A stretch of 39,313 nt of DNA from a virus. The DNA lies in the IMG/VR virus record IMGVR_UViG_3300045594_000200. One strand, given 5' to 3'. This document shows, one piece after another, positions 5,125-39,313 of this stretch (positions are counted from its first letter, which is position 1; each line of letters opens with the position of its first letter). A model generated the notes under the pieces. It did not search any database, was not told where the DNA came from, and was given only the letters and a program-made list of their open reading frames with translations. The translations under genes and the position numbers were made by a program.

Positions 5125-5328
5125 TTGACGATTGAAGAACTTGAAAATTTTAAAGGTCTTGGCTCTGAGGTGTTGGCAATCCAAAACGAGATAGATAGCC
5201 TTTACAGCCCTGTTTGTTGTCCTAATGGTCAGACGGGTGGCGGACATTCGAGCACACCATCAATTGAACTGTCCCACCATACAGGCAGAGTATACAAGTT
5301 TATATTCAAGGAAGAAGGGGAAGGATGA
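5125..5328 (+). CDS. Hypothetical protein (67 aa). Its N-terminal half resembles that of the next gene.
   Basis: TTG start 10 nt after GGGAGG. A coiled segment is followed by SP..G..GGGHSSTPS, as seen in small phage late-regulator families. Confidence 0.4.
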   Translation: MTIEELENFKGLGSEVLAIQNEIDSLYSPVCCPNGQTGGGHSSTPSIELSHHTGRVYKFIFKEEGEG

Positions 5329-5759
5329 ACAATGAAAACAGAAAGAGAGTAAGGTGGTTCAAAAATGAATTATCTTCTATTGATTACAGTGATTCTATTA
5401 TTGCAGACTTGGAAGAAAAGTTGGTTGTATTAGACAATCGTTTTGAAGCTCATTCGCCAAAGACAAACGGAATACATAATACGTCTGCTTCTGATCGTGA
5501 CCAGCAATTATTAGACTATACAGAGAAAAGGAATGATATATTGGCTCAGCTTCAAAAGGAAAAGACAAAGAAAAATCAAGTTGAAGGAATACTTAGCCTT
5601 ATACCGTCCGAATATGTAAAAATGATAACCGATACATCAGCTCAAAAGGTTACGTGGGAATGTGAAGCAATGAGAAAAGGGCTAAGCAGAAAGGCATTGT
5701 GCTGTAAAATTGATCGTGCAATCCTTGAAGCAATGAATATTTATTTCAATAAATTATAA
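5325..5759 (+). CDS. Putative phage transcriptional regulator (144 aa; sigma-70 region-4-like / RinA-ArpU-DUF1492-like architecture)
   Basis: ATGA overlap. A coiled N-terminal part is followed by a C-terminal HTH-like segment (WECEAMRKGLSRKALCCKIDRAILEA). The family assignment is from memory only. Confidence 0.35.
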   Translation: MNNENRKRVRWFKNELSSIDYSDSIIADLEEKLVVLDNRFEAHSPKTNGIHNTSASDRDQQLLDYTEKRNDILAQLQKEKTKKNQVEGILSLIPSEYVKMITDTSAQKVTWECEAMRKGLSRKALCCKIDRAILEAMNIYFNKL

Positions 5760-5773
5760 ATTCTTATATAAGG

Positions 5774-5797
5774 GCAGGGATAATTCCCTGCTTTTAT
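5774..5797 (+). terminator. Rho-independent terminator ending the + strand early operon
   Basis: GCAGGGA-taat-TCCCTGC followed by TTTTAT. Confidence 0.75.
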
Positions 5798-5798
5798 A

Positions 5799-5822
5799 TA
5801 AAAATGCGGTATTATTCCGCAT
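5799..5822 (-). terminator. Rho-independent terminator ending the reverse-strand island
   Basis: On the minus strand, ATGCGG-aataata-CCGCAT is followed by TTTTT. It overlaps the stop codon of 5812..6069. Confidence 0.6.
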
Positions 5823-6069
5823 CTTTATGATTTCCATCATAGCCTTCAAGAAATTCCGAAATATCTTTGAAACCATTTGTCTTATTGCAAATATATAGGG
5901 CTTTTTTGATAAACTGTGTCTTGTTGCTAAGAGCTTTCCAATAATCTATATATTCTTGATCTGTGGCCTTATTAAACCGAACAGAAACAGTCATGGTATT
6001 ATCTAAATTATACTGTGTTTGATACTTCAGCTTATGTTTAGCCCAATTAGGCAATTCTTTCTCTTTCAT
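5812..6069 (-). CDS. Putative ribbon-helix-helix-like small DNA-binding protein (85 aa), paralog A
   Basis: PNW..YQTQYN...TVSVRFNKATDQEYIDYWKALSNKTQFIKKAL is paralogous to the adjacent gene. The RHH assignment is inferred from the pattern. Confidence 0.5.
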   Translation of the reverse strand: MKEKELPNWAKHKLKYQTQYNLDNTMTVSVRFNKATDQEYIDYWKALSNKTQFIKKALYICNKTNGFKDISEFLEGYDGNHKDAE

Positions 6070-6290
6070 ATATTTCTCTTTATCTCCATTCCTAGTTCTT
6101 CCTTAGCGTATCTGATAACGCAATCCTTCAAGAACTTATTCTTGTTTGGTATGATCTTCCATATTTCGATGATTTCTGAATCAGTGAACTTGTTGAACCG
6201 GCAGCTAACACCAACAGTATACTTTTTGTTGTATTCTCTCTGCCGTTCCATCTGATTTTCATACCAGGTTGGAACCTTTTTTCTTGGCAT
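6066..6290 (-). CDS. Putative ribbon-helix-helix-like small DNA-binding protein (74 aa), paralog B
   Basis: ATG at 6290 is preceded by AGGAGG. PTW..RQREYN..YTVGVSCRFNKFTDSEIIEIWKIIPNKNKFLKD parallels paralog A. Confidence 0.5.
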   Translation of the reverse strand: MPRKKVPTWYENQMERQREYNKKYTVGVSCRFNKFTDSEIIEIWKIIPNKNKFLKDCVIRYAKEELGMEIKRNI

Positions 6291-6334
6291 ATATATTCCT
6301 CCTAACAAATTGTATTTCAATTCAAGACTTTGTG

Positions 6335-6670
6335 TCAAATGGTAATGTAATCAAGTTCTGAAAAGTTGTCTATAACATAGTCCGCCATAGCATACCGAAT
6401 AGCACTGTTTTTAAGCATCAGTTCCAAGTCGTCTTTATCAAAGTAAATATAGCGGCCATTCACACGTCTAAGAAGCTCACTTACTGTATCGGGGTAATCT
6501 TCAATACAATTACATTCAAAATACTGCGAAAGGATCCTGGCGCATCCATCAGGATTCTTTAACATATATTCAAGGTCTTCAATTCCTTCTTCCTTGGAAG
6601 AATAAAAATCTTCCCAATTCATACCAACCAATTCATTCCAAATCTTAGTTACAAGGTTTTCGTTATTCAT
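6335..6670 (-). CDS. Hypothetical acidic protein (111 aa)
   Basis: ORF with GGAGGG upstream and an ATGA-type overlap. D/E-rich. Confidence 0.6.
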   Translation of the reverse strand: MNNENLVTKIWNELVGMNWEDFYSSKEEGIEDLEYMLKNPDGCARILSQYFECNCIEDYPDTVSELLRRVNGRYIYFDKDDLELMLKNSAIRYAMADYVIDNFSELDYITI

Positions 6671-7041
6671 TTTGCCCTCCTAATGTCTTCTATGACATAT
6701 TCTTCTTTCTTCCATGGCATACTATTATCCTGTTCTGATAGCTTAATTACAAAATTCTGATCCTGTGACAATACATCAGCCAATATTTCATTAGCTGCTT
6801 GAATTGCTATCTGTTCCATATGGGCATTTGACCGATTACAAGTAACAAGCAATTCAGGCGGGTACTTTAAAGAATTGAATACTGCTATGCTTTCTCTGCC
6901 ATTGCTTCTAGTGACCGGCATTGTTTCGAGATAATAGCCATGTGACTTCTTACGTATGACCGTTACCCTCATATAGTTGGCATCAGCCATATTCTCATTC
7001 TTCTTACCCAAAATTCTGAAGTATCTGATATATCTTGCCAT
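6667..7041 (-). CDS. Hypothetical protein (124 aa)
   Basis: ORF with a TGATG overlap with the upstream gene. Confidence 0.6.
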   Translation of the reverse strand: MARYIRYFRILGKKNENMADANYMRVTVIRKKSHGYYLETMPVTRSNGRESIAVFNSLKYPPELLVTCNRSNAHMEQIAIQAANEILADVLSQDQNFVIKLSEQDNSMPWKKEEYVIEDIRRAK

Positions 7042-7250
7042 CAGTAATCAACTCCTTCATTTTCACAATTCATCTGTCTTATTGTTTCGTCTATTTCATC
7101 AATCAATTCATCTACATAATCGTATACATAGTTATCTTTATCATGATAAAAGTTTTCTGAAATGTCCTGTATTCTCTTTGCATACCTCTTGATCTGTTCC
7201 ATCTGCTTGAATGATTCTTTATTGAAACTCAGCCTGCGCATAAAATTCAT
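7041..7250 (-). CDS. Hypothetical acidic protein (about 66-69 aa)
   Basis: The ORF overlaps the 3' end of the ArdC-like gene. The start is 7250 or 7241. Confidence 0.5.
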   Translation of the reverse strand: MNFMRRLSFNKESFKQMEQIKRYAKRIQDISENFYHDKDNYVYDYVDELIDEIDETIRQMNCENEGVDY

Positions 7251-8805
7251 CCTTTCTGCTGCTCATTGCAGCTGATTGTTGCTTGTAGAAATTTGTTTTA
7301 CGTGATTCTTTGACCTGTTTAATGAAATCCGGATCCTTTGCCTTTTTAATTAAGCATTCTTTTTCTGCAATGGTTTTTGCATAGAACGTATGAGCTGAAA
7401 GACCGGTCATAATATCAATGACTTTGTATAGCTTTTCCACTTTGTCCCTTACAATGGCTAGACCATTGCCTAAATCATTTCCTTTTGCCTCTCTGTAGTA
7501 GCAATCCAAACCTGTTTTTTCGCTTTTTATTGCCAACTTATACGTGACCGGCTTTTCTTTTTTCTCGCCATCAACGATCACCAGTAATTTCTTGCGTTCG
7601 TTTGCTTCAGCTTCCCATTTTTTGGATGTATAGTATTCGATATCCTGTTTTATCGGTTCTCTTACCCATGTTTTGAATGCTTCAACGCTTTCCGGCGTGC
7701 AGTATTTCTCAGCCCGAACCATGAATGACTTGAACAATGCCACTGTATGCGTCTTGTAGAAATCACCATAGATCGTGTAATAGCCTTCTGCATCCTTGAA
7801 TGGAAGTTTAAAGTTCGGCGCATCATCAATTCTTTCCGGTTTCTCTGCTTCAGCTGGTTCCTCTGCTGGTTTCTCAATCGGCAGCAATTCCATATTTTCG
7901 TTCAAAAGCCCATCAGCGATCATCTTAACGGCCTTTTCTGCAAGAGTGCAAGCCGAAACTAAATCATCCGGATTCTGTGTAAGGTGCTTTTTCCAACTTT
8001 CGATATAGGCGGCGCTATTGTCGAATGACTTTTCATTTGAAATTCCTGTAATTCCCGACAAAATGCAAGCGCCAAACTCAGCAACCAGTTCTTCTTTTGA
8101 GTATGTTTGCGTTCCAAAACCGTTATATCCCGAAACACCTGTACGGTTCAATCTGCTTTTTGCGCCGGTCGAGTGTGTCAATTCATGGAAACATGTACTG
8201 TAGTATTCCGATAATTCTTTGTACTGTTCAATAGTAGGAACGTGTACTTCATCCGTAACAGGGCTATAGTATGCCTTTTCCGATTCTGTCTTATTGAAGA
8301 AATGCAATTCTGATCCTGCTTTTGACAGATAATTAGCAATAACCATTTCAGCGTTTTCATCTGCATCATCTTCTGTAAAATGCTTGACTTCTTTTTCGGG
8401 AATATCGTTACCGTTGGCATCCTTGAAAAGAGAGATTGAAAAGATAGGGTAGTACTTCAGCGTGTAGTGAACGAACTTCTCAGCTTTACCGTTATCATCC
8501 AATACCGGCGTACCATCTGCGTTTTTACGTTCAAAAGTTGTGCCAAAAAACTGATAGCAACGTTCACCAGTCCCTTTCATTTCTCCTTTTGGTTTCCATC
8601 CAAGCTCAGCGGCCTTTTTCCATGTAATATATCCACCTTTGCCGCCCAGGAATAACTGGTTCATGAAAGAGTAAGCCCTGCCTGTAGTGTAGTTATATGA
8701 TCCGCTAATAGCACTCCACGGTCTATGCCATGGAATAATGCCTTCATCCAATTTTGCAATCATGCGATCAGTTATGATCTGCGATACTGTTTTCTTGTTT
8801 TCCAT
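7219..8805 (-). CDS. ardC: ArdC-like antirestriction protein (528 aa). It has an N-terminal ssDNA-binding domain (DUF1738 type), a zincin-like metallopeptidase domain, and a C-terminal extension of about 230 aa that I could not assign.
   Basis: The N-terminus has GIIPWHRPW ... TGRAYSFMNQLFL ... ITWKKAAELGW.PKGE. The central part has YYSP..DEVHVP....F....EYYSTCFHELTHSTG...RLNR ... YSKEELVAEFGA (HExxH at about 8174-8188). Confidence 0.8.
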   Translation of the reverse strand: MENKKTVSQIITDRMIAKLDEGIIPWHRPWSAISGSYNYTTGRAYSFMNQLFLGGKGGYITWKKAAELGWKPKGEMKGTGERCYQFFGTTFERKNADGTPVLDDNGKAEKFVHYTLKYYPIFSISLFKDANGNDIPEKEVKHFTEDDADENAEMVIANYLSKAGSELHFFNKTESEKAYYSPVTDEVHVPTIEQYKELSEYYSTCFHELTHSTGAKSRLNRTGVSGYNGFGTQTYSKEELVAEFGACILSGITGISNEKSFDNSAAYIESWKKHLTQNPDDLVSACTLAEKAVKMIADGLLNENMELLPIEKPAEEPAEAEKPERIDDAPNFKLPFKDAEGYYTIYGDFYKTHTVALFKSFMVRAEKYCTPESVEAFKTWVREPIKQDIEYYTSKKWEAEANERKKLLVIVDGEKKEKPVTYKLAIKSEKTGLDCYYREAKGNDLGNGLAIVRDKVEKLYKVIDIMTGLSAHTFYAKTIAEKECLIKKAKDPDFIKQVKESRKTNFYKQQSAAMSSRKDEFYAQAEFQ

Positions 8806-8806
8806 G

Positions 8807-9208
8807 TTAGTTTTCTCCTTTTTGTTTTTTCGACAATGGCGTTATTTTGCGCCAATCTATGTCTAACACCATCCTTGAACTGTCTCTATTTGCGTAAGTC
8901 CAAACGTTTTTATCTTTGCTTTTACCATCTACTAGATAATAAGGGCGGCCTCCATAAAGCACGGCATCTGTATATACACCTGGGTACCTCAGCAAATGAC
9001 CGCAATATTCAGCCTTATATATGTCCTCATAATCTGTTACTATCGTATAAATCTTATTGCAGTATCGTGTGGTCTCCGATGTGTGCTGATACTGATATGT
9101 GCCATATCCGTAATGCCCAATATAAGGGCGTGGATCGGTTGTGTACTCATTTACTGATACGTAACCGTTGTGTTCTCTTGTGAGTGACACTATCCTATAG
9201 CTTTTCAT
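8807..9208 (-). CDS. Hypothetical Tyr-rich protein (133 aa)
   Basis: ATG at 9208 is preceded by GGAGGGAG, internal to ORF 8807..9256. Confidence 0.55.
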   Translation of the reverse strand: MKSYRIVSLTREHNGYVSVNEYTTDPRPYIGHYGYGTYQYQHTSETTRYCNKIYTIVTDYEDIYKAEYCGHLLRYPGVYTDAVLYGGRPYYLVDGKSKDKNVWTYANRDSSRMVLDIDWRKITPLSKKQKGEN

Positions 9209-9371
9209 ATAGACTCCCTCCATTATTGTGATGTGCTGCATCAATAAATTCCTCAAAAGTATCCTGCTTGTTTGCGTTGTTATCGGCTGAATCGTCCCAT
9301 TCTTCCCATAGCTGCCTTAACTCATTTTCTGTATATTCCGTATCGGTATCTGCATCAATATATATTTTCAT
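9195..9371 (-). CDS. Hypothetical very acidic protein (58 aa)
   Basis: Hand translation gives MKIYIDADTDTEYTENELRQLWEEWDDSADNNANKQDTFEEFIDAAHHNNGGSLYEKL. GGAGGA lies upstream. It is below the ORF-track cutoff. Confidence 0.5.
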   Translation of the reverse strand: MKIYIDADTDTEYTENELRQLWEEWDDSADNNANKQDTFEEFIDAAHHNNGGSLYEKL

Positions 9372-9410
9372 ATATCCTCCATGCCGGTATTAAGGCAACC
9401 GGCTAGCCTA

Positions 9411-9437
9411 TACTGCATACTCATTCAAGATTTTGAA
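9411..9437 (-). promoter_or_regulatory. Conserved leader motif, copy A (plus-strand reading TACTGCATACTCATTCAAGATTTTGAA). On the minus strand it is followed by the hairpin 9383-9403 and then the RBS of 9195..9371.
   Basis: Near-identical to copy B at 10440-10465, with the same order of motif, hairpin, RBS and ATG. Confidence 0.45.
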
Positions 9438-9440
9438 TAA

Positions 9441-9521
9441 TTAAAGTAAATAAGATACAACAAACATGACCAGTTCACTGATAATAGCTGTCATTACGAT
9501 AATGAATGTTCTGTTATCCAT
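9441..9521 (-). CDS. Possible 26-aa hydrophobic peptide (MDNRTFIIVMTAIISELVMFVVSYLL)
   Basis: The ATG lies 1 nt after the upstream stop, and GGAGGA sits inside the upstream gene's 3' end. Confidence 0.3.
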   Translation of the reverse strand: MDNRTFIIVMTAIISELVMFVVSYLL

Positions 9522-9522
9522 G

Positions 9523-9720
9523 TTAAAAATCCTCCAATCTTTCGATACTCTTAATAGTCCATCTGTGGGCTGATTTCCATCCATAATTCATACTTAACTG
9601 TGCCATGCAATCATCCTTGATTGCTTTACTGCCGTTTCTGTAGATTGACGAAAACTTAAAATCACTATGATCATGTCCATCATCCAAAAACGCTATATAA
9701 TCTCTCAATTTTCTACCCAT
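9523..9720 (-). CDS. Hypothetical protein (65 aa)
   Basis: ORF in the same-strand chain with a weak RBS. Confidence 0.45.
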   Translation of the reverse strand: MGRKLRDYIAFLDDGHDHSDFKFSSIYRNGSKAIKDDCMAQLSMNYGWKSAHRWTIKSIERLEDF

Positions 9721-9733
9721 TTCGTATCAATTC

Positions 9734-10141
9734 TCAGATACTCTTCAGAGTGACTTTATACATCGCTTGTACTAGGGTGTCAGCTACTAACCCAAACGCC
9801 TGGCGTAATGCCCTAGCCTGCACATCCAGCCACGTTTTATTCCTGTTAGGCGCCCAGCTGCCGCCATTGCATCTCTTCAAGCCGGACGGAGAACAAAGCC
9901 TTTCTGCGATGTCACCGTCATAGATTAGACTGCATCCACCATATGAATATTCCTGCCAAGTGTCAGCCCCATTCAATAATAACTTCCTTAATGATACCCT
10001 AGATGCACACTCTTCTAATTGCTTGTCAGTGACATCGTTCAATAGCTCCAATGCATACTCTTTGACTCCCTTGTCCCATGCACTCCTTGCCGGCTGATTC
10101 TGTACTGCTTGCCTTAGTTCTGTTACAGTGATTGATTTCAT
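9734..10141 (-). CDS. Hypothetical protein (135 aa) of unknown function
   Basis: ATG at 10141 with GGAGGA upstream. Contains SAWDKGVKEYALELL ... LLNGADTWQEYSYGGCSLIYDGDIAERLC ... WLDVQARALRQA. No family could be named confidently. Confidence 0.6.
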   Translation of the reverse strand: MKSITVTELRQAVQNQPARSAWDKGVKEYALELLNDVTDKQLEECASRVSLRKLLLNGADTWQEYSYGGCSLIYDGDIAERLCSPSGLKRCNGGSWAPNRNKTWLDVQARALRQAFGLVADTLVQAMYKVTLKSI

Positions 10142-10145
10142 TATG

Positions 10146-10379
10146 CTATCTATCCTCCGCAAGCATCCTTTTCGCTTGCTTTTCCGTGAGATCGTAATGC
10201 CCGCCGTTTAGACCGTGAAACAATGAGAAACTAGACCAATAAATGAACTTTTTTCCGTTTGTAGCAATGACAGAATATAGCCAACTGTCCTCGACTGCCG
10301 AATACTGCCGGATATCATACAGATGGTACCCAGGTAATGCCGCTGAAATCCGTGATTCTGCTGCTTGTTTGATTGTCAT
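10146..10379 (-). CDS. Hypothetical protein (77 aa), first gene of the reverse-strand island
   Basis: AGGAGG lies 5 nt upstream of the ATG. Confidence 0.6.
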   Translation of the reverse strand: MTIKQAAESRISAALPGYHLYDIRQYSAVEDSWLYSVIATNGKKFIYWSSFSLFHGLNGGHYDLTEKQAKRMLAEDR

Positions 10380-10439
10380 GTGTTCCTCCTATTTTTGGCG
10401 CCGTTTCCGGCATAAGTTAGGCGGTTTCCCGCCTGGCAA

Positions 10440-10465
10440 TACTGTATACTCATTCAAGATTTGAA
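10440..10465 (-). promoter_or_regulatory. Conserved leader motif, copy B (TACTGTATACTCATTCAAGATTTGAA). On the minus strand it is followed by two GAAA-tetraloop hairpins (10419-10434 and 10400-10411) and then the RBS of 10146..10379.
   Basis: It differs from copy A by one substitution and one single-base gap. The minus-strand hairpins read AGGCGG-GAAA-CCGCCU and GCCG-GAAA-CGGC. Confidence 0.45.
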
Positions 10466-11210
10466 GATAAAAGAAATAAAGTTACCAGCACGTTCCTTAC
10501 AGTTATATATATGGTTATCGTTTTAGTTACGGTATATAGCGCCGTACCGCTTTTATATATGTCCTGCCGCTTGCGTGTTTGTCCTCTAGGGGCTTTCCTG
10601 TACGTGGTAGCATTTCTCACCTGTTTCAGTCTTGCGACTTCCCTATAGGCACTCTTTCCTTTTGCCCTTTATTAGGTACTTTGATGGTCTGCCGTTGCCT
10701 TGTGATTGGCTATAGATTGTCCCCAGCTATTTAGCTATTCAGTTTTCAAAGATCGGCGCCGTTGCCCCTTACTGATGCTAACGACTTGCACATATGGATT
10801 GCTTTATATGCTTATATATAGGCTTTTGTTTGCCTGTCCTTCTTTGGACACCTTCACTATGCCACTGAAAATCCGGATTGCAATAGAAAAAATTTACTCA
10901 ATGCTCAAAAATGGCTTAACAGAGCCAAAAATAGGCACAAAAATATTTTTGAAATGGCATGGCTGGCAAGGGGAAAAGTAATATATAACGTACCTTATAC
11001 GGAAAATCAAAAAAGATAATCAACGATTGTCTATTATCTCAGTTCAAATGTCTATACGGATTCTTACAAACGCCTAGATCTAGGGATATTCATCGGTTTT
11101 TATTCAAAATTATTCAATCAATCAGCGGCAGCGGCAGGGGCAGGGGCTATAGGGTAGCGCATCAGATGGGGCGGCGCAGCGTGACGGTCGTATAGTATCA
11201 TGGTTTTCTG

Positions 11211-11283
11211 TCTCTCCTGTATGTGTCTCTCCTGTATGTGTCTCTCCTGTATGTGTCTCTCCTGTACGTGTCTCCTGTATACT
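11211..11283. repeat. Tandem repeat of a 15-bp unit, TCTCTCCTGTATGTG. Three copies are perfect, one has a single substitution and one is a shortened copy.
   Basis: Read directly. Units start at 11211, 11226, 11241, 11256 and 11271. Confidence 0.95.
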
Positions 11284-11522
11284 GCATAATAAATCAGTAG
11301 TGGTATCAAAATATACGGGGGTTATATCAAAATCAAACGTTAAAATACTGAAATATTAAGATTTATAGGGGGAGTGGCACCTGTGTGCGGCATTTTGATC
11401 GTGGAAATGTTCAGCATAGGCAAAAAAATAAAAATTCCGTGGGAAAAATTCGGAATAAAAATATTATGCGAAGTCGCAATGTTCCAAATAAAATCAGTTA
11501 ATATGTAGGTGAGGAAATAAAG

Positions 11523-11747
11523 ATGAAATTCTATAAGATAGGCAGTTATTATATTCCTGAGAACTCAATAAATTATATTTTGGAGCTCATTGAAGGGACA
11601 AGAAAGACGTATGTAATAAACTTTGGCAATGATAGCCATATCAATGTGTCGGCTGGTGTAGCAAAGGATATCGGCATAGGAGGATATGATGGGGAAACTA
11701 ACAGAGTATCAAAAGAGAGACAGAACAAAGGCAAGAAAGCTCAGTGA
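11523..11747 (+). CDS. Hypothetical protein (74 aa) upstream of terS
   Basis: GGTGAGGA RBS. It overlaps the terS start by about 60 nt, so it is uncertain. Confidence 0.4.
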   Translation: MKFYKIGSYYIPENSINYILELIEGTRKTYVINFGNDSHINVSAGVAKDIGIGGYDGETNRVSKERQNKGKKAQ

Positions 11748-12096
11748 GAAGTGGTTCAATCTAACGCAGTCACCGAAAGTCACCGAAGCGCTTGTGCAGA
11801 AATATTTTGATGAAGAAGAAAGCCCGACAAAAGCAGGGCTTTTATTGTATCTGCATATAGGCAAAGGAAAGTGGCAGCAAATGAGGAGCGATCCGAAGTT
11901 CAAAGATTCCGTTGATTATGCGGACTTGAGGATTGAGGATCTGTATGAACAAAGATTGACCACACCGTCCATGACTACAGGAGCTATCTTTGGGCTGAAG
12001 AATTGCGGATGGTCGGACAGGAACGATATTAAGGCCACCTTGGATGGCCATATATCGGTAGAACAGCTTCTTAAAGGAACCAAGAAGAAAGCATGA
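11686..12096 (+). CDS. terS: Terminase small subunit (136 aa)
   Basis: AGGAGG RBS. PTKAGLLLYL ... TGAIFGLKNCGWSD is typical of gp3-type small terminases. It sits immediately upstream of terL with an ATGA overlap. Confidence 0.75.
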   Translation: MMGKLTEYQKRDRTKARKLSEKWFNLTQSPKVTEALVQKYFDEEESPTKAGLLLYLHIGKGKWQQMRSDPKFKDSVDYADLRIEDLYEQRLTTPSMTTGAIFGLKNCGWSDRNDIKATLDGHISVEQLLKGTKKKA

Positions 12097-13724
12097 AAGA
12101 CGAAGAATTGTCTATAACGATTCGGGAGTATATCGAGGAATATCTGAAGATAAAGACAAAGGATGGCCAACTGGTCAACCTGTCAATGAATTATGCGCAG
12201 AATCGTTTGTATGACATATTCAGGGATGCCTATAACGAGGATAGGCCGTGCAAGATCATAGTGCTTAAAGCTAGACAGTTGGGTATTTCGACCGTCACTG
12301 AAGCAATCATATCTTCCCTGGTAATGACTACTTATTATGTTTCGGCATTGATCGTAGCTCATATATCGGATGCATCGCAGAATATCTATAACATGTCAAA
12401 GAGATATTATGATGAACTTCCACCTGCATTGAAACCAATGATCAAGTATTCCAATGCGAGGGAATTGGTGTTTCAGAATCCGGATGATAAGGCTGCTGAA
12501 GATAATAAAGGGCTCAGGAGCTCGATCAGAGTGGCAACTGCCGGACAGTCGGGCGTTGGCCGAAGCCAAACGTTTAACTATATGCACCTGTCAGAGGTGG
12601 CATTCTGGAAAGAGGAAGATGGAAAGACAGTTCAATCGCAGCTTACCGGACTTCTTCAGACACTTCCGCAGCATGGTTTCTCATTTCTTGTTATTGAGAG
12701 CACCGCTAATGGCTGGAATTACTTTAAATCTCTTTGGGATAAGGCAGTGGCCGGAGAGAATGACTATGTACCGCTGTTCATACCGTGGTTTGAAATGGAA
12801 GATTATAGGCTTCCTTACCACGGAGAGAAACTTTCACCGGAAGAAACAGAGCTCTGTTCAAAGTATGAGATTGATGAAGAACAGATCATGTGGCGCCGGT
12901 ATGCTATTGCTAACCTTTGCGGCGGCGATATAGACCAGTTCCGCCAGGAGTACCCAAGTACACCTGAAGAAGCATTTATCATGACTGGATCGCCTGTCTT
13001 TAATACAGACAAGGTGCTTCAGAGAATGAGTGAAGTACAGCCAGCAGATTCAACCGGTATGTTTACGGATTCCGGTACATATTATGAAGATTCCAGAGGA
13101 TATATCTCAATCTGGAAGATGCCGGAGCCAAATCATGTCTATGTTATCGGCGCTGATACAGCTGGTGAAGGATCCGATTACTTCAATGCTTATGTCATTG
13201 ATAAGAATACCGGAGTACAGGTGGCAAGATACCGTGCACAATCTGATGAAGGACTGTTCGTAAAACAGATTTATTATCTTGGATATTTCTATAACATTGC
13301 AATGATCGCACCGGAAGTGAACTTTTCTTCCTATCCGACTGCAAAATTGCAGGAAATGAACTATCCAAATATGTATGTCCGTGAACAGGTCGATACATAT
13401 AAATATAAGACACAATCCTCCTTCGGTTTCCGTACTACTTCCCGAACACGTCCGCTGATTATTGATAATCTTGTGGATTTGGTTCGGGAGGAAGCCGAAA
13501 AGATCAATGATATCGAATTTTTGAGAGAATGCCTTTCATTCGTGAAGAACCCGAATACCGGAAAGCCGGAAGCTACAGAGGGTACTCATGATGATTGCGT
13601 TATGTCTATGGCAATCGCCTACTTTGTGCTTCCACAGGCTCAGCAGGTATACGTTGATACAACGGAAGCTGAAAAAGATGAATATTCTGATGATATTTCT
13701 TCTTTTCTCGGCTATGGAGAGTGA
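12093..13724 (+). CDS. terL: Terminase large subunit (543 aa)
   Basis: Deviant Walker A (VLKARQLGISTV), appropriate size and position, and a C-terminal nuclease-like region (THDDCVMS). Confidence 0.85.
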   Translation: MKDEELSITIREYIEEYLKIKTKDGQLVNLSMNYAQNRLYDIFRDAYNEDRPCKIIVLKARQLGISTVTEAIISSLVMTTYYVSALIVAHISDASQNIYNMSKRYYDELPPALKPMIKYSNARELVFQNPDDKAAEDNKGLRSSIRVATAGQSGVGRSQTFNYMHLSEVAFWKEEDGKTVQSQLTGLLQTLPQHGFSFLVIESTANGWNYFKSLWDKAVAGENDYVPLFIPWFEMEDYRLPYHGEKLSPEETELCSKYEIDEEQIMWRRYAIANLCGGDIDQFRQEYPSTPEEAFIMTGSPVFNTDKVLQRMSEVQPADSTGMFTDSGTYYEDSRGYISIWKMPEPNHVYVIGADTAGEGSDYFNAYVIDKNTGVQVARYRAQSDEGLFVKQIYYLGYFYNIAMIAPEVNFSSYPTAKLQEMNYPNMYVREQVDTYKYKTQSSFGFRTTSRTRPLIIDNLVDLVREEAEKINDIEFLRECLSFVKNPNTGKPEATEGTHDDCVMSMAIAYFVLPQAQQVYVDTTEAEKDEYSDDISSFLGYGE

Positions 13725-24705: not shown

Positions 24706-27700
24706 ATGAGTTTTTGGGATGATATTACAAATTGGTTTAGTGAGGTAGGAAAGAGAGCGCAAGAAAACGCCGACAAGGTGGATCAGGTAAGCTCAAATGT
24801 TGCTTCTTCTATCAGCCAGCCAACTGCTTATGTGCCAAAGACAGACACTTCAAGTCTGCCGCAGTCAATTACTAATGTAACGACTACTTCAACCGGCGAT
24901 CATCCCTATCAGAATGATTTGTATAGCGCAGAAGCACCTGCATATACGGCGCAGAGAGAAAAGGCAAAGAACGTTTATGACAGTACGCTAGATGCGATCC
25001 ATAACGCCGTAAATGCGGTTGGCAATACTGCCAGCAATATCGGAAATGATTTTGTACGCAATGCAAAGAAGAATGTTCAGGACACAGACAATGCTATATC
25101 TTCCTCTGTGAAGTATTCTGATACTCCTAACAATGCACCATATGTCACGACTACCACTACAGGCGATCATTCTACAGATGATACATATAAAGCGGTAGGA
25201 GCCGGTCTAAAGGCAATTTCACAGGGGAAGAATGTGTCTGAAGCAATGCAGAAGGAAACCGCTGAAACGCTTCCGGAAACATTGACAAGAGCGCAGGAAA
25301 AAATAAATAAAGCTAATCTCGAAAATGCACAGTACACTGAAACCGTAAATAACAATACGATCACAAAGGGAGCTTCTGATCTGTTAAGAAGCAATCTTGC
25401 CGGTGTGTCGAGCGCAGTAAACGGAACAGTTGCCGGTGTTGCAAACGCAGGACGTACTGTATCTCATGTTCTAGGAAATGATGAATTAGCTGATAAGTTC
25501 GGCGGTATTGCTTCAGATGCGGACGATACAGACGTTCAAACAGGGCTTAACCAGAATAACCAGTTCGCCGGTACAGTTGTAGGAGACCTTGCTTCCACGA
25601 TTGGTCAGATGTTGCCACAAACGATCTTAGGTGTTGCTACAGGCGGCACAGCGGCGGCAGGAAAGATTGGCCTTGGACTTATGGGTGCTTCTGTATACGG
25701 CAATGAATCAAATAAGGCGTTCAATCAGTTAGGAGCAGACGGTAATTTATCAAACGAAGATTATCTCAGAGCTAACCTGTATGCAGGTGCAAAAGCCGGT
25801 ACAGAGGTAGCAACAGAAAATATTGATAATGTTCTTCCTGGTATGAAAATGGGGCTTAATCAATTCTTGGAAGAAGGCCTTGAAGAAGGTGTAGGAGCAT
25901 TGGTTGATCCATTGACCGACCAGATTCTTGATGCCAAGAACCTAAAGGATGCCGCAACAAACGTAGCCAATTCCTATTCTTCAATGTCTTACTGGAAGGA
26001 CTTAGCAAAACAAGCCGGTCTTGGTACACTTTCCGCAGTAGTATCTTCTGCACCTCATTTATTAGATAAGAATTACCGTAATGCATTGATTGAAGAAACA
26101 GAAAATGCAGGTGCGGTATTATCACAGAAAATAGAATTAAAGACTATTCAGGCAACAATCTCTGCCAATAAAGCAGGGCTTGTCAGCAATGGTCAGAAAG
26201 CGGCCGCCGTAGATAATTTACGGCAGATTGCGTATGGTGAGAACGGATCACAAGGACTATTTACTTCATTGGATGATGAAGGTAATATTGCCAATCCATT
26301 AAAATCTGAAAATGGTGATATTAAAACACTTGCACAGCAGACGAACTATACGCTGATTCAGTCAGAGCTTGAAGGGAAACTTGGTTCTGATGCAGCAAAA
26401 ACTATTGCGAAGATTGCGAATAAGATGGAAACACCTATCATCTTTGACGATTCTCCGTTTACCCTTAATGATGGTACCGAAGTTGACGGATGCGTAAACA
26501 CTAATGGTGTTATATGCATCAATAAAAACGCCAGCGATCCAGTGTCATCAATTTTTGAGCATGAACTCGCCCACATGACAGAGAACTCTGAAAATCACGG
26601 AGACTATGTGGCACAGATTACGGAAATGTTCAAAAATGGAGAAATTAAAGACGAAAATAATTTGATTGGTAAGATTCAGTCAGATAATTCTCTCAGCGCA
26701 GATGCAAAGAAGAATGAGAGCGTTGCTATTCTTACACAGTCATTGCTCAATGATCAAGAATCTTTAAAGACGTTGGCCGGCAATTCTTCATCTGTAGCAA
26801 AGTATCTTATTGATTCCATGAAGAACTATGCGACAGGAAAAAGTAATACGTTGAATATCGCCATAAATACGCTCAGAAAATCATTGAATACAGCATCAGC
26901 ACCGAATGAAACAGAAGCATATACTAACCTAAGTAGACAGATGCTAGATGCAAGATTATACAGGATGGATAAAAATGTCGAACAAGTAAAAGTATCGAAA
27001 AATATTTTATCTAAATATGATGATTACCAGGATGCGCTTAAGTCAGGCGCTTCAAAGAAGGAAATAAAGTCAAAGCATGATGCTCTGTATGATGCAATCG
27101 GGAAAGCCGTATCAGGATCGGATAAGCCGATGGAAGAAACAAGCAAAGAAATTATGGACTTCTTGGCAAAACGATACGCAAAAGATAATGATGCAGAAGC
27201 AATCGTAGAACAGAAAAAGAAAAAGAGAACGGTTAAGAAGACAACGGAAGCGGTGCAGGAAACCACAGAAAATACTTCTGCCGATACCGTAAATAAACTG
27301 TCAGATTATCTTACACAGGCAGGAATCAAGAAATCTGCTGCATCAGAATATGCGCAGAATTTAGTTGAGCAGTACCCTATATTCCAGAATGATGTTCAGA
27401 GCAAGACTAAGAATCCAAAGAATACGTTCATGAAAGAAATGGCACAGGTGCGTGCTTTTGCGGAAAGAAAGAATCTTAACTTTTCTGATATTTCAAAGAA
27501 TGTATTCAGTATTATCAAGGATCAGCAGAATACAGATGTTGCACCAGCAAAGGTGGAAACGCAGCCGGAACCAGTAAAACAAACAGGCATATTTGATGAA
27601 CCTGCAAATGTGCAGGAAGTAAAAACGGAAGCAGTAAAGGCAGAAGTAAAGCCTATTACACCAGATGTAAAAGAGCCGGTGCAGGAAATCAAGACTGTAG

Positions 27701-30700
27701 AAGAAGAAAAACCTGTCATTGATGAAGCTCTTAAATCTGCTATTGATACAAAAGGAAATATCATTCAGCAGAACAACCGTACAGAGCAGGAGACTAACAG
27801 GGCTATTGCACAGAAGATCAGTGATGGTGCAAAAGCAGAAGTAAAGAAGTCTATTGAATATCAAGTGTTTAAGACAGCAGAAGAAGCAGTTACAAAAGAC
27901 GTTAAAGAAACTGTTTCTGATACTGCAAAAGAAGATATGGCTGCCGAAGTAAAGAACACAGTAAAGGCGGCCAAGAAGAAAGTGAAAAAGTCCGTTAAAT
28001 CTTCCATGGCAGATGATCTTACAAAGAATATCTCTGAAAGCATGAAGGAACATAATAATTCAAAGCTAACAGAGAACGATTCTAAGATTATTGATGATTC
28101 GGTTGATACCAACAGTAAAGTAATTGAAGATGAAGTGAACAAGCAGAGAGAAGCCGATACCAAGACAGAGAATCATAAGGTTGACCTTACGAATATCAAG
28201 TACGATCAGACAGACGGAAGATCAAAGCTGAATCATCAGTTCGCTACATTGAAGAATCTTGAAAAGTTGGATATTACACCAGAATTAAGGAAGAAATTAC
28301 AGGCAGATTTTGAATCAGGGCAGCCGAATACATATGCAAGTACACAGACAAACGAAATGAAGCTGCGTACTGCCGGTGAGAAGCTGAAAAAGAACGGTCT
28401 GAATTATTGGTATAACTATCTCACAAATAAGTGTGATGTTACGGATAAGGGAACCTATAGCCTTCATGATGTAAATGAAGGTGATCTTATTATGGCGCAG
28501 GAAGTAAATAAATCTGTAAGCAACAAGGTATCTGATTATGGAAATAGTCTTGTTACCTTAACGCAGGATGCTATCCGGAACGTTCAGAAAGACGGAAAAC
28601 TGGATAAAATTGATGCCGATAAGATTACTACAGTGAAGAAGGCAGAAGATTTCCTTGATAATCATACCGAAGTCACAAATGGAAATATTCAGGCTACTAG
28701 ATCAATGCTCAATGATAACCGTTATCTTCACCAGAATGTTACGCAGATGGTCCTTTCTATGCGGTCGTTTGCAGGATCCATGCTGCATGATGCACAGGTG
28801 TATAAGAATAATGCCTGGGAGAGCATGACCGGTGATGAAAAGGCCGATTATATGAGACAAACTCTTGATGATGTGAACGATTATATCGTCACCAAAACAA
28901 GAGAGGGAAAGAAATTTCTTCAAACGCATTCTGATTCTGATTATTTAGCTTCACTTCATACCGGCGCAGATAAAGATATTTATGAGAATCTTATATCTGC
29001 TATGGCAGATGCTACAGATGCACATGACAGTGAAACCTATGCAGAAAAGTATGAGGAATTTAAGAAGCTCGTACAGCATGATGCGCCTAGAAGTGCTACA
29101 GAAAAATTACGGTCATGGAGATATTTGAATATGCTGGTAGCACCAGTCACTCATGAGCGCAACATTCTTGGCAATGCTTTAATGTCGGCCATGAACGCTT
29201 CCAAAAATGCCAATCAGTTTTTGGTTGAATCAATGGTCAAGCATGGCGGCCTTGTTATGACACATAATATCAATCATCTAAAGGATGATACAGAATATAT
29301 GTCGTCAAAGGATCAGAAGAAATATCTTGATGCAATGGAGAAAGCGGGAATTACAGAAGAAGATATTACCGATCATCACGGATATTTTGATAACCGCAAT
29401 AATGCAATGTCTAAGGCGTTTGAAAAATATTTAAGTTCTCATACAGGCAAGGCAGATACATCAATAGCCAGAAAGAAATACTTCTCTGATCTTGGATATA
29501 CCGGCGAAGCGCTTGATTCTTTGGTAAGCAATAAATCAAGAAAGTTTGCAATCAATGATCGTAACATGGTGTATCTTAGAAACAGGACGCATACATCTTA
29601 TGAAAACGCATTGCTCAACGGCATTGCAGATGGCTCAGTATCGGGGAAATTTAAAAAGAATAATAACAGTAATGTATTGACCGGGTTTACCTATTCTAAT
29701 GAGAATGATTTTGCCAATAAAGTATTCAATGATGCAAGCAAACAGTTCATTGATGAATCTGCATTGCGTATGTCAAAGGCAAACAGAGCTCAGAAGAAAC
29801 AGGCGAAAGAATACATCCAATACCTTGAAGAAACTGGAAGTATGAAGATGGGCGAAAAGTATGGTGATGAAAACGTACAGGAGATTCTTCAGGGAAGAAC
29901 GCCTTTTGCAGGAGATAACATTGTTTCAAAGGCTATCAATTCTCTGTATAACTTCAACTCATACGGTTTTAAGTCTGCTAAGAATGTTCCGGTGGTTAAA
30001 TATCTCGGCCTTGAAAACGAAGATAAAGGCTTCTATGAGAGCAATGCCGCTACTGCACTTGCCATGGACTTGAATAACAAGGGATATTCTCTGGAAAAGA
30101 CAGAGGACGGTTCGTGGAGATTAAGCGGACTATCTAAAGAAAAGTCTGATTCTGTATTGAATGATCTTGTGGCAAACGCAAAACAGGTGGGTGAAGAATC
30201 TGTATACCGTGATTCAAATGCGTTTGTTACGCAGCTTAACAAAATGAGAAAGAACAGTAAAATTGCTAACCTTGTTTTGGAAGCATCAGTGCCATTTATT
30301 AAGACACCATCAAATATTATTCGCAGAGGTATTGAATATTCTCCTGTATCGTTTATATCAGCAAAGGCGTTAAAGAGCAAAGTCATTCATGGAGATATTT
30401 CAGGTGATGCCTATATTTCAAGAATTTCTAAGGGCATGTCTGGATCAGAGATTGCTATGGCCGGTCTTGGCTTGGCAATGGCAGGTGTTCTGAAAGGCAA
30501 AGATAGAGACGATGATTACAATGCGCAGAACTATAAGAGCTCAACTTTTGGCAACCAAGACTATGCTTTAAATATTGGCGGACATCAGATTGATCTGTCT
30601 TGGGGTGCTCCAGTTACTTCTGTATTATTGACCGGTGCAGCCGTGGCAGATGCCTTGAAGGATAAAGGAGATTTCTTCACCAATGGCGAATGGGCTAGTG

Positions 30701-32825: not shown

Positions 32826-33953
32826 TCAATTCTTTAGTAAATTTACTGCATTCTTTTTCTTCTCGTTATCGCTCCTTGCGTATTTTATTGTCATTGACGG
32901 TTCTGCATGTCCCATAAGCTCCATGGTAGTACGAACGTCTACATTGTTTGTAATCATATTGGTAGAGAACCTATGGCGCAATGCGTAAAGGTGAAACGAT
33001 ATGCCTAATCTTGAAGATATGCGGTTTATCAGCCATGATACCGAATTGCTGCTTAGATATTTATTATTGATATCTGCAAATAGATTGTCTGTTTTAGCAT
33101 ATCCTAGAACGATCTGAAACACCTTTATTCCTTCATTATTAAGCGGTATGTCTCTTACAGATGATTCTGTTTTAGTGGCCACAACTGCACAATCAGAATA
33201 TTCGTTTGATCCGATACTGTGGCATATATGGATATAGCCTTCTTCTATATGCACGTCTTCTCTCGTCAGTGCATAGCATTCTGCCGGTCTTATTCCGGTC
33301 TCCCTGATTGTCATGATTGCATATGCTAAAATGTGATAATAGTATATTTGTTCTTCACCAATACCTTGTGTCAAAAAATAATTTATCATTTTATCAATAT
33401 CTACATCTTTTACCTTTTGACTGCGAGGTTCTGTAACGTGTTTGCTCTTAGCTGGTACAATTACCCGATCCATTGGATTTATGGTAATGAGGTTTAGCAT
33501 TATAGCGGTCTTACATATTTTCTTCCAGACAATAGCAATACGTTTTATCATATTTAGCGAAACATCATATACCAAGCTGTTAAGAAAGCTCTGAATATCC
33601 AACGGGCGTATATCATCTATGTTCTTGTTTCCATATGTGGCTTTGATACGGCAAAAATCAGAACGCAATGTTTTTCTGTTCCCTTGTGATTCATGGTAAA
33701 GATCAAGTCCTTCGTTGAATACCTGTTCTACCGTTCTGTGTACGCCGCTTGGAAGACCGTTAAGAAGCAATTCTGCTCTCTTTATATCCCTGTGATTGCA
33801 CGCTTCAATCATGCACTGATTGAATGATGTATATTCGGCAGGATTGAATGTCTTGGAGTACACCTTCCTTATGCCATCTGAATCATAATAGAACTTGACG
33901 GTAATATATTTGTTACCATTATGTTGCTGAATTGTAATATATTTTTCTTTCAT
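32826..33953 (-). CDS. int: Tyrosine-recombinase integrase (375 aa)
   Basis: ETGIRPAE (box I Arg), HLYALRHRFST (HxxR) and LMGHAEPSMTIKYAR (His and catalytic Tyr). Confidence 0.9.
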   Translation of the reverse strand: MKEKYITIQQHNGNKYITVKFYYDSDGIRKVYSKTFNPAEYTSFNQCMIEACNHRDIKRAELLLNGLPSGVHRTVEQVFNEGLDLYHESQGNRKTLRSDFCRIKATYGNKNIDDIRPLDIQSFLNSLVYDVSLNMIKRIAIVWKKICKTAIMLNLITINPMDRVIVPAKSKHVTEPRSQKVKDVDIDKMINYFLTQGIGEEQIYYYHILAYAIMTIRETGIRPAECYALTREDVHIEEGYIHICHSIGSNEYSDCAVVATKTESSVRDIPLNNEGIKVFQIVLGYAKTDNLFADINNKYLSSNSVSWLINRISSRLGISFHLYALRHRFSTNMITNNVDVRTTMELMGHAEPSMTIKYARSDNEKKKNAVNLLKN

Positions 33954-38784: not shown

Positions 38785-39313
38785 TGATAGGTTCGAGGGG
38801 TTCATTGTTTTACAGCACAAAATAATGGATTGGCAGTATTTCGGATGCATGAACGCATTGGGAATATGGATGCACATTCTGATGAACGCAAATTGGCGAG
38901 ACGGATGGTTCATGGGAGACAAGATTGAGAGAGGATCATTTGCTACTTCAAACAAGAAATTAGCGAAGGAATGTGACCTCAGTGAGTCGACAATCAGAAG
39001 GTGGCTAAAACGGTTTGAAGAAGCAGGACAAATCAAGGCAATCGGAACAAACAGATATACCAAGATAATCGTTATAAATTACGGTAAATATCAAGATTAT
39101 ACGTCAGACGTGGACAACCAAGTGAACAACCAAGTGAACAACCAAGTGAACAATCAAGTGAACAACAATAGAACAAATAAACAAAGAAACAAAGAAACAA
39201 TAAAAGATAAATATATTGTGCAAAAGTTTTCTAAACCGTCAGTGCAGGAACTAGAAGACTATGCAAAATCAATCGAATTTCAGAATTTCAGTGCAAGCAG
39301 TTTTCTTGACTAT
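38777..39313 (+). CDS. Replisome organizer / DnaD-like protein, N-terminal part. It is open at the window end and continues at base 1.
   Basis: The ATG overlaps the upstream stop. N-terminal wHTH (SFATSNKKLAKECDLSESTIRRWLKRFEEAGQI). There is no stop before the window end, and the ORF is absent from the ORF track for that reason. Confidence 0.75.
   Translation, partial: MNDDRFEGFIVLQHKIMDWQYFGCMNALGIWMHILMNANWRDGWFMGDKIERGSFATSNKKLAKECDLSESTIRRWLKRFEEAGQIKAIGTNRYTKIIVINYGKYQDYTSDVDNQVNNQVNNQVNNQVNNNRTNKQRNKETIKDKYIVQKFSKPSVQELEDYAKSIEFQNFSASSFLDY
39110..39169. repeat. Five tandem 12-bp units (GTGRACAAYMAW) inside the replisome-organizer gene, encoding (V-[DN]-N-Q)n
   Basis: GTGGACAACCAA, GTGAACAACCAA x2, GTGAACAATCAA and GTGAACAACAAT were read directly. 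Confidence 0.9.
39224..39313. repeat. Second copy of the 90-bp terminal repeat
   Basis: Identical to bases 1-90. Confidence 0.95.

Follow-up and report, generated by a model that had tools for sequence, protein, structure and literature searches.

The virus record IMGVR_UViG_3300045594_000200 (39,313 nucleotides; this whole stretch of DNA is referred to as the window) contains, at positions 5812-10379, a block of 12 minus-strand open reading frames (ORFs), numbered g1 to g12 in transcription order, the seventh of which encodes an ArdC-like anti-restriction protein. Alignment with related phage contigs showed that the position, the flanks and a common frame of this block are conserved, and that the small cargo genes turn over fast. 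Overall, we lean towards reading the block as an accessory operon that forms a unit of its own in a temperate phage with P22-type packaging and is equivalent, on the phage side, to the establishment/anti-defence islands of plasmids, and, with a similarly modest degree of confidence, as an ArdC-centred establishment/anti-defence operon whose genes are switched on in a burst when the DNA enters and are then silenced by the products of its last two genes, g11 and g12. The anti-defence interpretation had been put forward in an earlier note made from the DNA alone and is partly supported: the ArdC anchor, the self-contained accessory unit and the variable hotspot were found, and none of the small block proteins matched known anti-restriction, anti-CRISPR (Acr), DNA-mimic or defence families in Pfam, PHROGs, NCBIfam, PADLOC or PDB sequences.

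Organization and boundaries of the block

The genes and regulatory features of the block are as follows, with lengths in amino acids (aa), isoelectric points (pI), putative ribbon-helix-helix (RHH) regulators and 5' untranslated regions (5' UTRs) indicated; L062 and L076 are contigs of the closest relative.

10467-11522, unstranded: rest of the divergent, ORF-free stretch that separates the block from the late/packaging operon
10439-10466, minus: cis element copy 1 (CTTCAAATCTTGAATGAGTATACAGTAT), putative promoter/operator of the block, based on repetition and conservation
10383-10438, minus: 5' leader with two GAAA-loop hairpins (GGCGGGAAACCGCC, GCCGGAAACGGC)
10146-10379, minus: g1, 77 aa, opens the operon, stand-alone LPD24 domain (large polyvalent-protein-associated domain 24; Pfam PF18839)
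9734-10141, minus: g2, 135 aa, member of a very large phage family without annotation, all-alpha predicted fold
9523-9720, minus: g3, 65 aa, borderline BamHI/OkrAI-type resemblance
9441-9521, minus: g4, 26-aa hydrophobic peptide MDNRTFIIVMTAIISELVMFVVSYLL, conserved in L062 and L076
9410-9437, minus: cis element copy 2 (CAAAATCTTGAATGAGTATGCAGTAT), putative internal promoter/operator, with a T-rich stretch before and a 5'-UTR hairpin after
9195-9371, minus: g5, 58 aa, pI 4.05, net charge -12, orphan, first gene after cis element copy 2
8807-9208, minus: g6, 133 aa, 14% Tyr (19 Tyr), orphan
7219-8805, minus: g7, 528 aa, ArdC-like anti-restriction protein (Pfam, PHROG, R388 ArdC structures)
7041-7250, minus: g8, 66-69 aa, mildly acidic orphan overlapping the ArdC end
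6667-7041, minus: g9, 124 aa, basic, domain fused to ArdC in the closest relatives
6335-6670, minus: g10, 111 aa, pI 4.15, net charge -13, orphan cargo
6066-6290, minus: g11, 74 aa, pI 9.6, putative RHH-type DNA-binding regulator
5812-6069, minus: g12, 85 aa, basic, last gene of the operon, putative RHH-type autoregulator
5791-5820, minus: block terminator (intrinsic), whose hairpin GCGGAATAATACCGC (5806-5820) shares bases with the g12 stop codon, then T-run ATTTTTATAT
5774-5799, plus: intrinsic terminator serving the converging early operon, hairpin GCAGGGATAATTCCCTGC (5774-5791), then T-run TTTTATAT to 5799

The 12-gene layout described in the earlier note was confirmed, as the block ORFs agreed with the JGI and Logan gene calls on identical contigs, GGAGG-type ribosome-binding sites preceded most of the genes, and the sign of the GC skew inverted exactly across 5.5-10.5 kb. 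Gene junctions abutted or overlapped by a few bases, with two exceptions, the gaps at 6291-6334 and 9372-9440, the latter containing cis element copy 2. The proposed boundaries, i.e. convergent terminators on one side and a 1.1-kb ORF-free region on the other, also held, the hairpins and T-runs being readable and positions 10380-11522 (~1.14 kb) being without a supported gene. The 15-nt hairpin GCGGAATAATACCGC also occurred, identical, in the closest relative, there within the 5' leader of the first gene of the block (L062 550-564; L001 27-41).

ArdC and the g9 domain

Judged by its domains, motifs and structural alignment, g7 is a genuine ArdC-family anti-restriction protein. Its residues 7-122 matched ArdC-N (PF08401, DUF1738; Pfam E 2.3e-14) and residues 173-286 MPTase-PolyVal (PF18818; Pfam E 2.6e-29), residues 6-302 were collinear with the R388 ArdC structures 6SNA/6I89 (E 7e-27), and the protein matched the anti-restriction family PHROG 7245 (E 1.5e-49). 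Based on the family and the R388 alignment, ArdC-N is predicted to be a single-stranded DNA (ssDNA)-binding domain. The peptidase motif HExxH...E was intact (HELTH at 207-211, EELVAE at 238-243), with H207, E208, H211, E238 and E239 invariant among 23 homologues, and the tyrosine of the SAAY motif was conserved. The earlier note had called ArdC the only recognisable product of the block; the assignment stood on Pfam, PHROG and structural grounds, and its uniqueness did not, since g1 matched LPD24 above the cut-off.

The ArdC of the window ends in a C-terminal extension of ~220 aa (residues ~303-528) with a Pro/Glu-rich linker, for which no homologue was detected in protein-collection, Pfam or hhalign comparisons; its identification as a diverged g9 domain was rejected (hhalign probability 0.5%). 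The closest ArdC relatives carry the g9 domain at the place of this extension, and in the two closest ones it forms the C-terminus of ArdC (BLASTP E 3e-12 for P0002 and 8e-10 for P0003), which argues for a functional link between g9 and ArdC. Matches of the g9 profile were essentially confined to this lineage in an exhaustive search of 1.84 billion representatives. ArdC-N is reported to be rare in phage-type polyvalent proteins (PMC5512222), yet at least 589 ArdC-like stretches were found in IMG/VR with an alignment query.

Conserved frame and turnover of the cargo genes

The region equivalent to the block was reconstructed for the closest relative from binned IMG/VR scaffolds (TerL 84% identical) and the near-identical NCBI contig L062. 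On the scaffold from the terS side, a 1.29-kb ORF-free region is followed by the opening codons of the first gene of the L062 block, where the scaffold stops; the ArdC scaffold has ArdC fused to g9, together with the cis element and the 26-aa peptide. A third scaffold (L156) possesses the g11/g12 pair followed by a converging gene, a homologue of the window gene at 5325-5759 in the same convergent position (L156 3084-3488; 46% identity), so that the flanks are identical in the relative. ORF-free regions of 1.2-1.4 kb were found at the same place in relatives. The frame common to the window and its closest relative thus comprises the hydrophobic peptide, the cis element, ArdC, the g9 domain and, in last position, g11/g12, and the cargo genes between the frame genes all differ. 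Acidic products recurred among the non-homologous cargo of the relative, with a pI below 4.8 in 8 of 16 proteins.

Turnover was also detected between contigs of the relative that came from different samples and were 97-99% identical (L062 versus L076/L156). At least two internal segments of the block were replaced by unrelated sequence (L062 4467-5262 versus L156 736-1818; L062 857-1306 versus L076 1201-1460), which, judging from the aligned contigs, is strain-level cassette exchange. The earlier note had suggested using synteny to see whether the block is a variable hotspot, and both the retention of flanks and frame in the relative with 84% identical TerL and the differing cassettes among near-identical copies bear this out.

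Among more distant phages, L099 (TerL 60% identical) possessed terS, a 1.2-kb ORF-free region and a divergent block at the same position, which contains ArdC and a hydrophobic ORF of 48 aa and ends in a g11-like gene that abuts a converging cI-like repressor; only ArdC and the terminal g11-like gene are common to this block and that of the window. L063 and L096 likewise had packaging genes and ArdC pointing away from each other, and in L063 the ArdC block runs directly into ERF and SSB.

The g11/g12 pair and the cis element

The two terminal genes of the block are paralogs (41% identical over 58 aa), and g12 homologues with 66-69% identity were present in the scaffolds L062 and L156 of the relative. 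Using a local hidden Markov model built from g11, g12 and their relatives, seven additional phage lineages (L062/L156, L099, L151, L137, L118/L119, L096 and L063) were found to have a g11-like gene downstream of ArdC in the same orientation, and in five of them (L099, L151, L137, L118 and L096) a strand switch comes after that gene. Close g11-like genes in IMG/VR were restricted to the two ArdC-block phages. Distant members of the family showed a textbook beta-alpha-alpha sequence pattern, the AF2 (AlphaFold) model of g11 had the order helix, coil (26-36), helix, helix, Pfam RHH_1 touched two of 13 members weakly (best E 0.008), and the best PDB profile match was also weak (2q2k, E 0.032; we take this entry to be the RHH protein ParR of pSK41). 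These lines converge, weakly, on an RHH family; of the two tandem RHH-like paralogs announced in the earlier note, the paralogy is established and the RHH likeness only weakly supported.

A 26-nt element, TCAAAWCTTGAATGAGTATRCAGTAT, containing the dyad TTCAA-ATC-TTGAA, was present in two coding-strand copies in the window, compared to none in 100 shuffles. Copy 1 lies 60-85 nt upstream of g1 and copy 2 between the peptide gene g4 and g5; a T-rich tract lies ahead of each copy, and 5'-UTR hairpins come after it. Two copies of the core of the element occurred at equivalent places in L062, one of them after the peptide gene, and the second leader hairpin was retained there through a compensatory change (GCCC...GGGC). 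Their position and conservation suggest that the cis elements act as promoter-operators.

Other products of the block

The g1 protein matched PF18839 with E 4.9e-7 and 30.4 bits (curated cut-off 27) over profile positions 13-73 of 73. In searches of GenBank phages and PLSDB plasmids with the block proteins, matches were obtained for g2 only. The g2 family comprised at least 2670 clusters at 90% identity in a large protein collection, and relatives at 47-51% identity occurred in Eggerthella and Parabacteroides phages; cultured phages with family members include Eggerthella phage EL753P1 and Parabacteroides phage PF672P1. An alignment of 72 sequences, with 20 invariant columns, gave a confident all-alpha AF2 model (pLDDT 89, pTM 0.81), for which Foldseek returned nothing significant in PDB (best E 0.9) or BFVD (best E 0.2), and no Pfam or PDB sequence match to g2 was found. 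In every context examined, g2-like genes were first or second in a run of small genes after a long ORF-free stretch, often with an LPD26-domain protein downstream. Upstream of the g2-like genes of L066 and L067-L075 there were, as a rule, 0.7-2.2 kb in which no gene was called. In a group of ~80-kb phages, a protein of 558-568 aa with a weakly matching LPD26 domain was encoded after the g2-like gene, and DNA methyltransferase genes lay nearby on the opposite strand.

The g3 protein showed a borderline resemblance to residues 32-80 of BamHI/OkrAI-type endonucleases, in their N-terminal third (Pfam BamHI, E 2.2e-4, 21.5 bits, below the cut-off of 22.8). The match to the OkrAI structure 3odh was weak (E 0.69; motif NG.K.IK..CM..L...GW), and the Glu of OkrAI is replaced by Ala at the aligned position of g3. 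Based on these alignments, g3 could be an endonuclease fragment, a decoy or a chance match.

The 26-aa hydrophobic peptide pointed out in the earlier note, g4, has a counterpart in the relative with 56% aa identity and four synonymous changes, directly upstream of ArdC; in L062 and L076 it sits immediately upstream of cis element copy 2 and ArdC. Because it is conserved with synonymous changes, the g4 ORF is considered real. When g4 was checked as a type I toxin-like peptide, neither an antisense RNA nor an Rfam family was detected. The Tyr-rich 133-aa protein of that note corresponds to g6.

Acidity was borne out for g5 and g10, with net charges per residue of -0.21 and -0.12, respectively, beyond all 30 small plus-strand ORFs of the window, and only to a modest degree for g8 (-0.09), the third acidic product listed. 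An overall negative charge such as that of g5 and g10 is expected of a DNA mimic, as a property that is necessary and not sufficient, surface placement being a separate matter; acidity alone is weak evidence for DNA mimicry by the small block proteins. No Pfam, PHROG, NCBIfam or PDB sequence match to a known DNA-mimic family (Ocr, ArdA) was found for g5, g8 or g10, and g8 gave sub-threshold family matches only (Pfam, PHROG, NCBIfam, PADLOC). Searches with g4, g5, g6, g8 and g10 returned no family, PDB, phage, plasmid or defence-system match, and they were also absent from ~90 other ArdC-bearing phage loci. That small acidic proteins beside an antirestriction gene are the usual signature of anti-defence genes, as the earlier note put it, is a matter of inference only. 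Core replication or morphogenesis homologues, which that note had named as evidence against an anti-defence cassette, were found for none of the block genes.

Phage context and flanking genes

The window represents the whole genome of a temperate phage in circularly permuted form, encoding ERF and SSB among its early genes and a P22-type portal. Once mapped to a 62.8-kb JGI contig, its ends (1-90 and 39224-39313) overlap by ~90 nt, indicating a circularised assembly with terminal redundancy. In this host contig the same phage is integrated and adjoins ABC-transporter, Ldh, LarC and ECF-transporter genes. The strong GGAGG ribosome-binding sites and a GC content of ~40% suggest a Firmicutes host. 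No DNA-level relative was found among GenBank phages, and a TerL scan of isolate genomes gave distant relatives only (29-36% identical). The packaging genes beside the block and the integrase gene lie as follows.

11686-12096: TerS, gp3-like (GP3_package), confirmed
12093-13724: TerL, confirmed
32826-33953, minus: integrase

TerS and TerL place packaging genes beside the block, as had been claimed. On its other side, the 144-aa product of 5325-5759 had been taken for a late regulator, for which neither Pfam nor PHROG gave family support. A single ORF of 2637 aa (24706-32619) ends the late operon and, once the phage is excised, lies immediately beside the integrase gene; its product is presumably a giant protein of the tail fibre or for host recognition.

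No Rfam match was found in the window, including the ORF-free region 10380-11522. A 15-bp tandem repeat, TGTCTCTCCTGTATG, is present there in 4.4 copies (11209-11274) and could serve the late promoter or the pac site as an array of binding sites. The JGI copy of the phage has 15 additional bases across this region, which fits one extra unit, and three Logan contigs all stop within the repeat at 11238, indicating that it breaks assemblies. Just upstream lies a 44-nt segment (11183-11226; L001 949-992; 84% identity), and nothing else in the ORF-free region is conserved in the relative whose TerL is 84% identical; different short-period repeats follow the segment in the two phages.

Proposed mechanism and alternative explanations

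In the proposed establishment model, transcription would begin just upstream of the stabilising 5'-UTR hairpins, and the operon would fire at DNA entry, before any repressor is present. ArdC and at least some of the cargo proteins would then blunt restriction and other defences, and the basic paralogs g11 and g12 (probably RHH proteins) would accumulate last and shut off the two promoters. In the most speculative step, the block, which lies beside the packaging start and faces away from it, may be on the first DNA entering the cell, because headful packaging starts near terS and ejection is last-in, first-out. Early expression is suggested by the ArdC block of L063, which is continuous with ERF/SSB. 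The ArdC of plasmid R388 acts against type I restriction and is needed in the recipient cell, not in the donor, its peptidase activity being dispensable (PMC7213743). On the Bacillus plasmid p576, control of ardC and other establishment genes by the RHH repressor Reg576 has been shown experimentally (PMC6294495). Variable 'anti-defence islands' have been described in the pLS20 family (PMC8708921), and ArdC-N, MPTase and LPD domains have been placed in an early-invasion toolkit in which solo forms exist (PMC5512222).

Several observations weigh against this model. The timing of expression of the block is a matter of inference, and eight of the 11 non-ArdC products, whose action against defences is putative, are without a homologue or family. 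The integrase and repressor genes are read in the same direction as the block, so that the prophage may express it as well. R388 ArdC works on ssDNA entering by conjugation; phage DNA is injected double-stranded. The cis element does not fit the sigma-70 consensus. As for g11 and g12, the two-sequence AF2 model of g11 is of low confidence (pLDDT 58.6), and profile-profile comparison by hhalign with approximate RHH sequences gave probabilities below 1%. Finally, a general rule that ArdC always lies beside packaging genes was rejected, only a few of the 51 ArdC loci with enough upstream flank showing this arrangement; from the loci compared, the divergent packaging/ArdC layout is a feature of lineages and no rule for phage ArdC genes.

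A broader form of the model appears unlikely as a whole. It would see the block as a phage 'establishment regulon', entry-proximal, burst-expressed and RHH-repressed, in which a conserved frame recruits interchangeable cargo and several cargo genes represent new anti-defence families (the g2 family, which in gut phages typically heads the small-gene arrays behind long ORF-free regions, g9 as an ArdC partner, the hyper-acidic g5/g10, and the BamHI-like fragment g3 as a decoy for a restriction endonuclease).

Three other explanations are each given a low probability. According to the first, which we regard as rather improbable, the block is transcribed divergently from the late operon and under the late control of that operon, and ArdC, the LPD24 protein and others are packaged and injected as effectors, like P1 Dar or polyvalent proteins. 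It would account for the regulatory region common to the block and the packaging/late operon, and for the two products with polyvalent-protein domains (ArdC-N/MPTase and LPD24), for which delivery with the DNA has been argued, pSa ArdC reportedly being transferred as a protein (PMC5512222). However, the cis element was found inside the block only and not upstream of the late genes, the continuity of the L063 block with ERF/SSB is that of early genes, R388 ArdC is required in recipients rather than donors (PMC7213743), and no capsid-targeting or MuF-like domain was found in the block products.

The block may also be a moron, transcribed in the lysogen to the benefit of host or prophage, for instance through superinfection exclusion, prophage protection or a small membrane peptide, rather than of incoming DNA. 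The orientation shared with integrase and repressor, the promoter-like elements and terminator of its own, the integrated copy in the host contig and the hydrophobic peptide g4 agree with such a role, but in all cases studied ArdC has acted offensively, at the entry stage (PMC7213743, PMC8708921), constitutive anti-restriction would open the lysogen to other invaders (PMC8708921), and PADLOC detected no defence match in the block; this explanation too has little probability in our view.

Similarly doubtful is the view that only ArdC matters, the small ORFs being passengers, largely neutral or unrelated, that evolve fast in a slot permissive for recombination, and their acidity a matter of composition. 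Orphans without homologues outside this phage, the wholesale replacement of cargo between relatives and the lack of anti-defence family matches among the small ORFs are what it would predict, whereas the tight gene packing with strong ribosome-binding sites, the recurrence of acidic small proteins in the cargo of the relative (8 of 16 with pI below 4.8), the strong conservation of g2 (20 invariant columns in 72 sequences) and the fusion of the g9 domain to ArdC in relatives argue for more than hitchhiking. A defence-system reading was rejected, PADLOC giving a single sub-threshold match (g8 to LmuA, E 0.0055), as was a transposon or insertion origin, with no flanking direct or inverted repeats, a GC content similar to that of the rest of the genome and the same flanks in the relative.

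If the establishment model is true, the plasmid-style logic of ArdC, variable small effectors and a terminal autorepressor also operates in temperate phages of gut/rumen Firmicutes. The frame (peptide, cis element, ArdC, g11-like gene) would then provide a 'guilt by association' handle for mining anti-defence genes, as aca does for anti-CRISPRs, and the g2 family would become a concrete subject for functional studies that is found in many phages; should the model fail, what is left is a further accessory region of a phage in which one anti-restriction gene is known. The leads that stand out are the use of the conserved frame for mining, the connection between ArdC and g9, and the g2 family.

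Comparison with known systems

Anti-defence islands of this kind are already known from plasmids and phages, and the block would be a plausible further case. The ArdC of R388/pSa (IncW) has, like that of the window, an ssDNA-binding ArdC-N domain and a gluzincin peptidase domain with HExxH, the Glu-helix EE and the SAAY tyrosine. The window protein differs in being encoded by a phage and not by a conjugative plasmid, in its length (528 aa compared to ~300 aa in R388) and in that the DNA entering with the phage is double-stranded.

In the leading regions of conjugative plasmids, genes for anti-restriction and small genes of unknown function group together on what is probably the first DNA to enter, in an orientation that allows immediate expression. 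The block resembles these islands in its clustered anti-restriction and small unknown genes, whereas no ssDNA promoter is needed or was detected for it, and the entry polarity of the phage is a deduction.

With the polyvalent proteins (Iyer et al. 2017, PMC5512222), the block shares the ArdC-N, MPTase-PolyVal and LPD24 domains, and g2-family genes elsewhere lie upstream of LPD26 proteins; in the block, however, the domains are spread over separate small genes instead of one giant fusion.

Phage acr-aca operons are likewise short operons of small anti-defence genes closed by a DNA-binding autoregulator (both roles putative in the block), with a burst-then-shut-off logic (predicted here) and fast cargo turnover around a conserved regulator gene. 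In contrast to them, the block has no known Acr or HTH-type Aca homologue, its putative regulator is RHH-like rather than HTH, and its anchor gene is anti-restriction, not anti-CRISPR.

The Reg576 regulon of p576 differs from the block in its operator, a dual TTATCCC motif, and in that repression has been shown for Reg576 and is predicted for the block, which is located on a phage and has two tandem paralogous putative regulators without sequence similarity to Reg576 in PDB profile searches. Like the block, the Reg576 regulon and the pLS20 islands combine ardC with variable small genes of unknown function (PMC6294495, PMC8708921). The Reg576 regulon further resembles the block in possessing several promoters with a shared operator (putative in the block), structured 5' UTRs and a small RHH-type repressor (again putative in the block) encoded in the same unit, and in the pLS20-family islands, as in the block, the cargo is highly variable between relatives.

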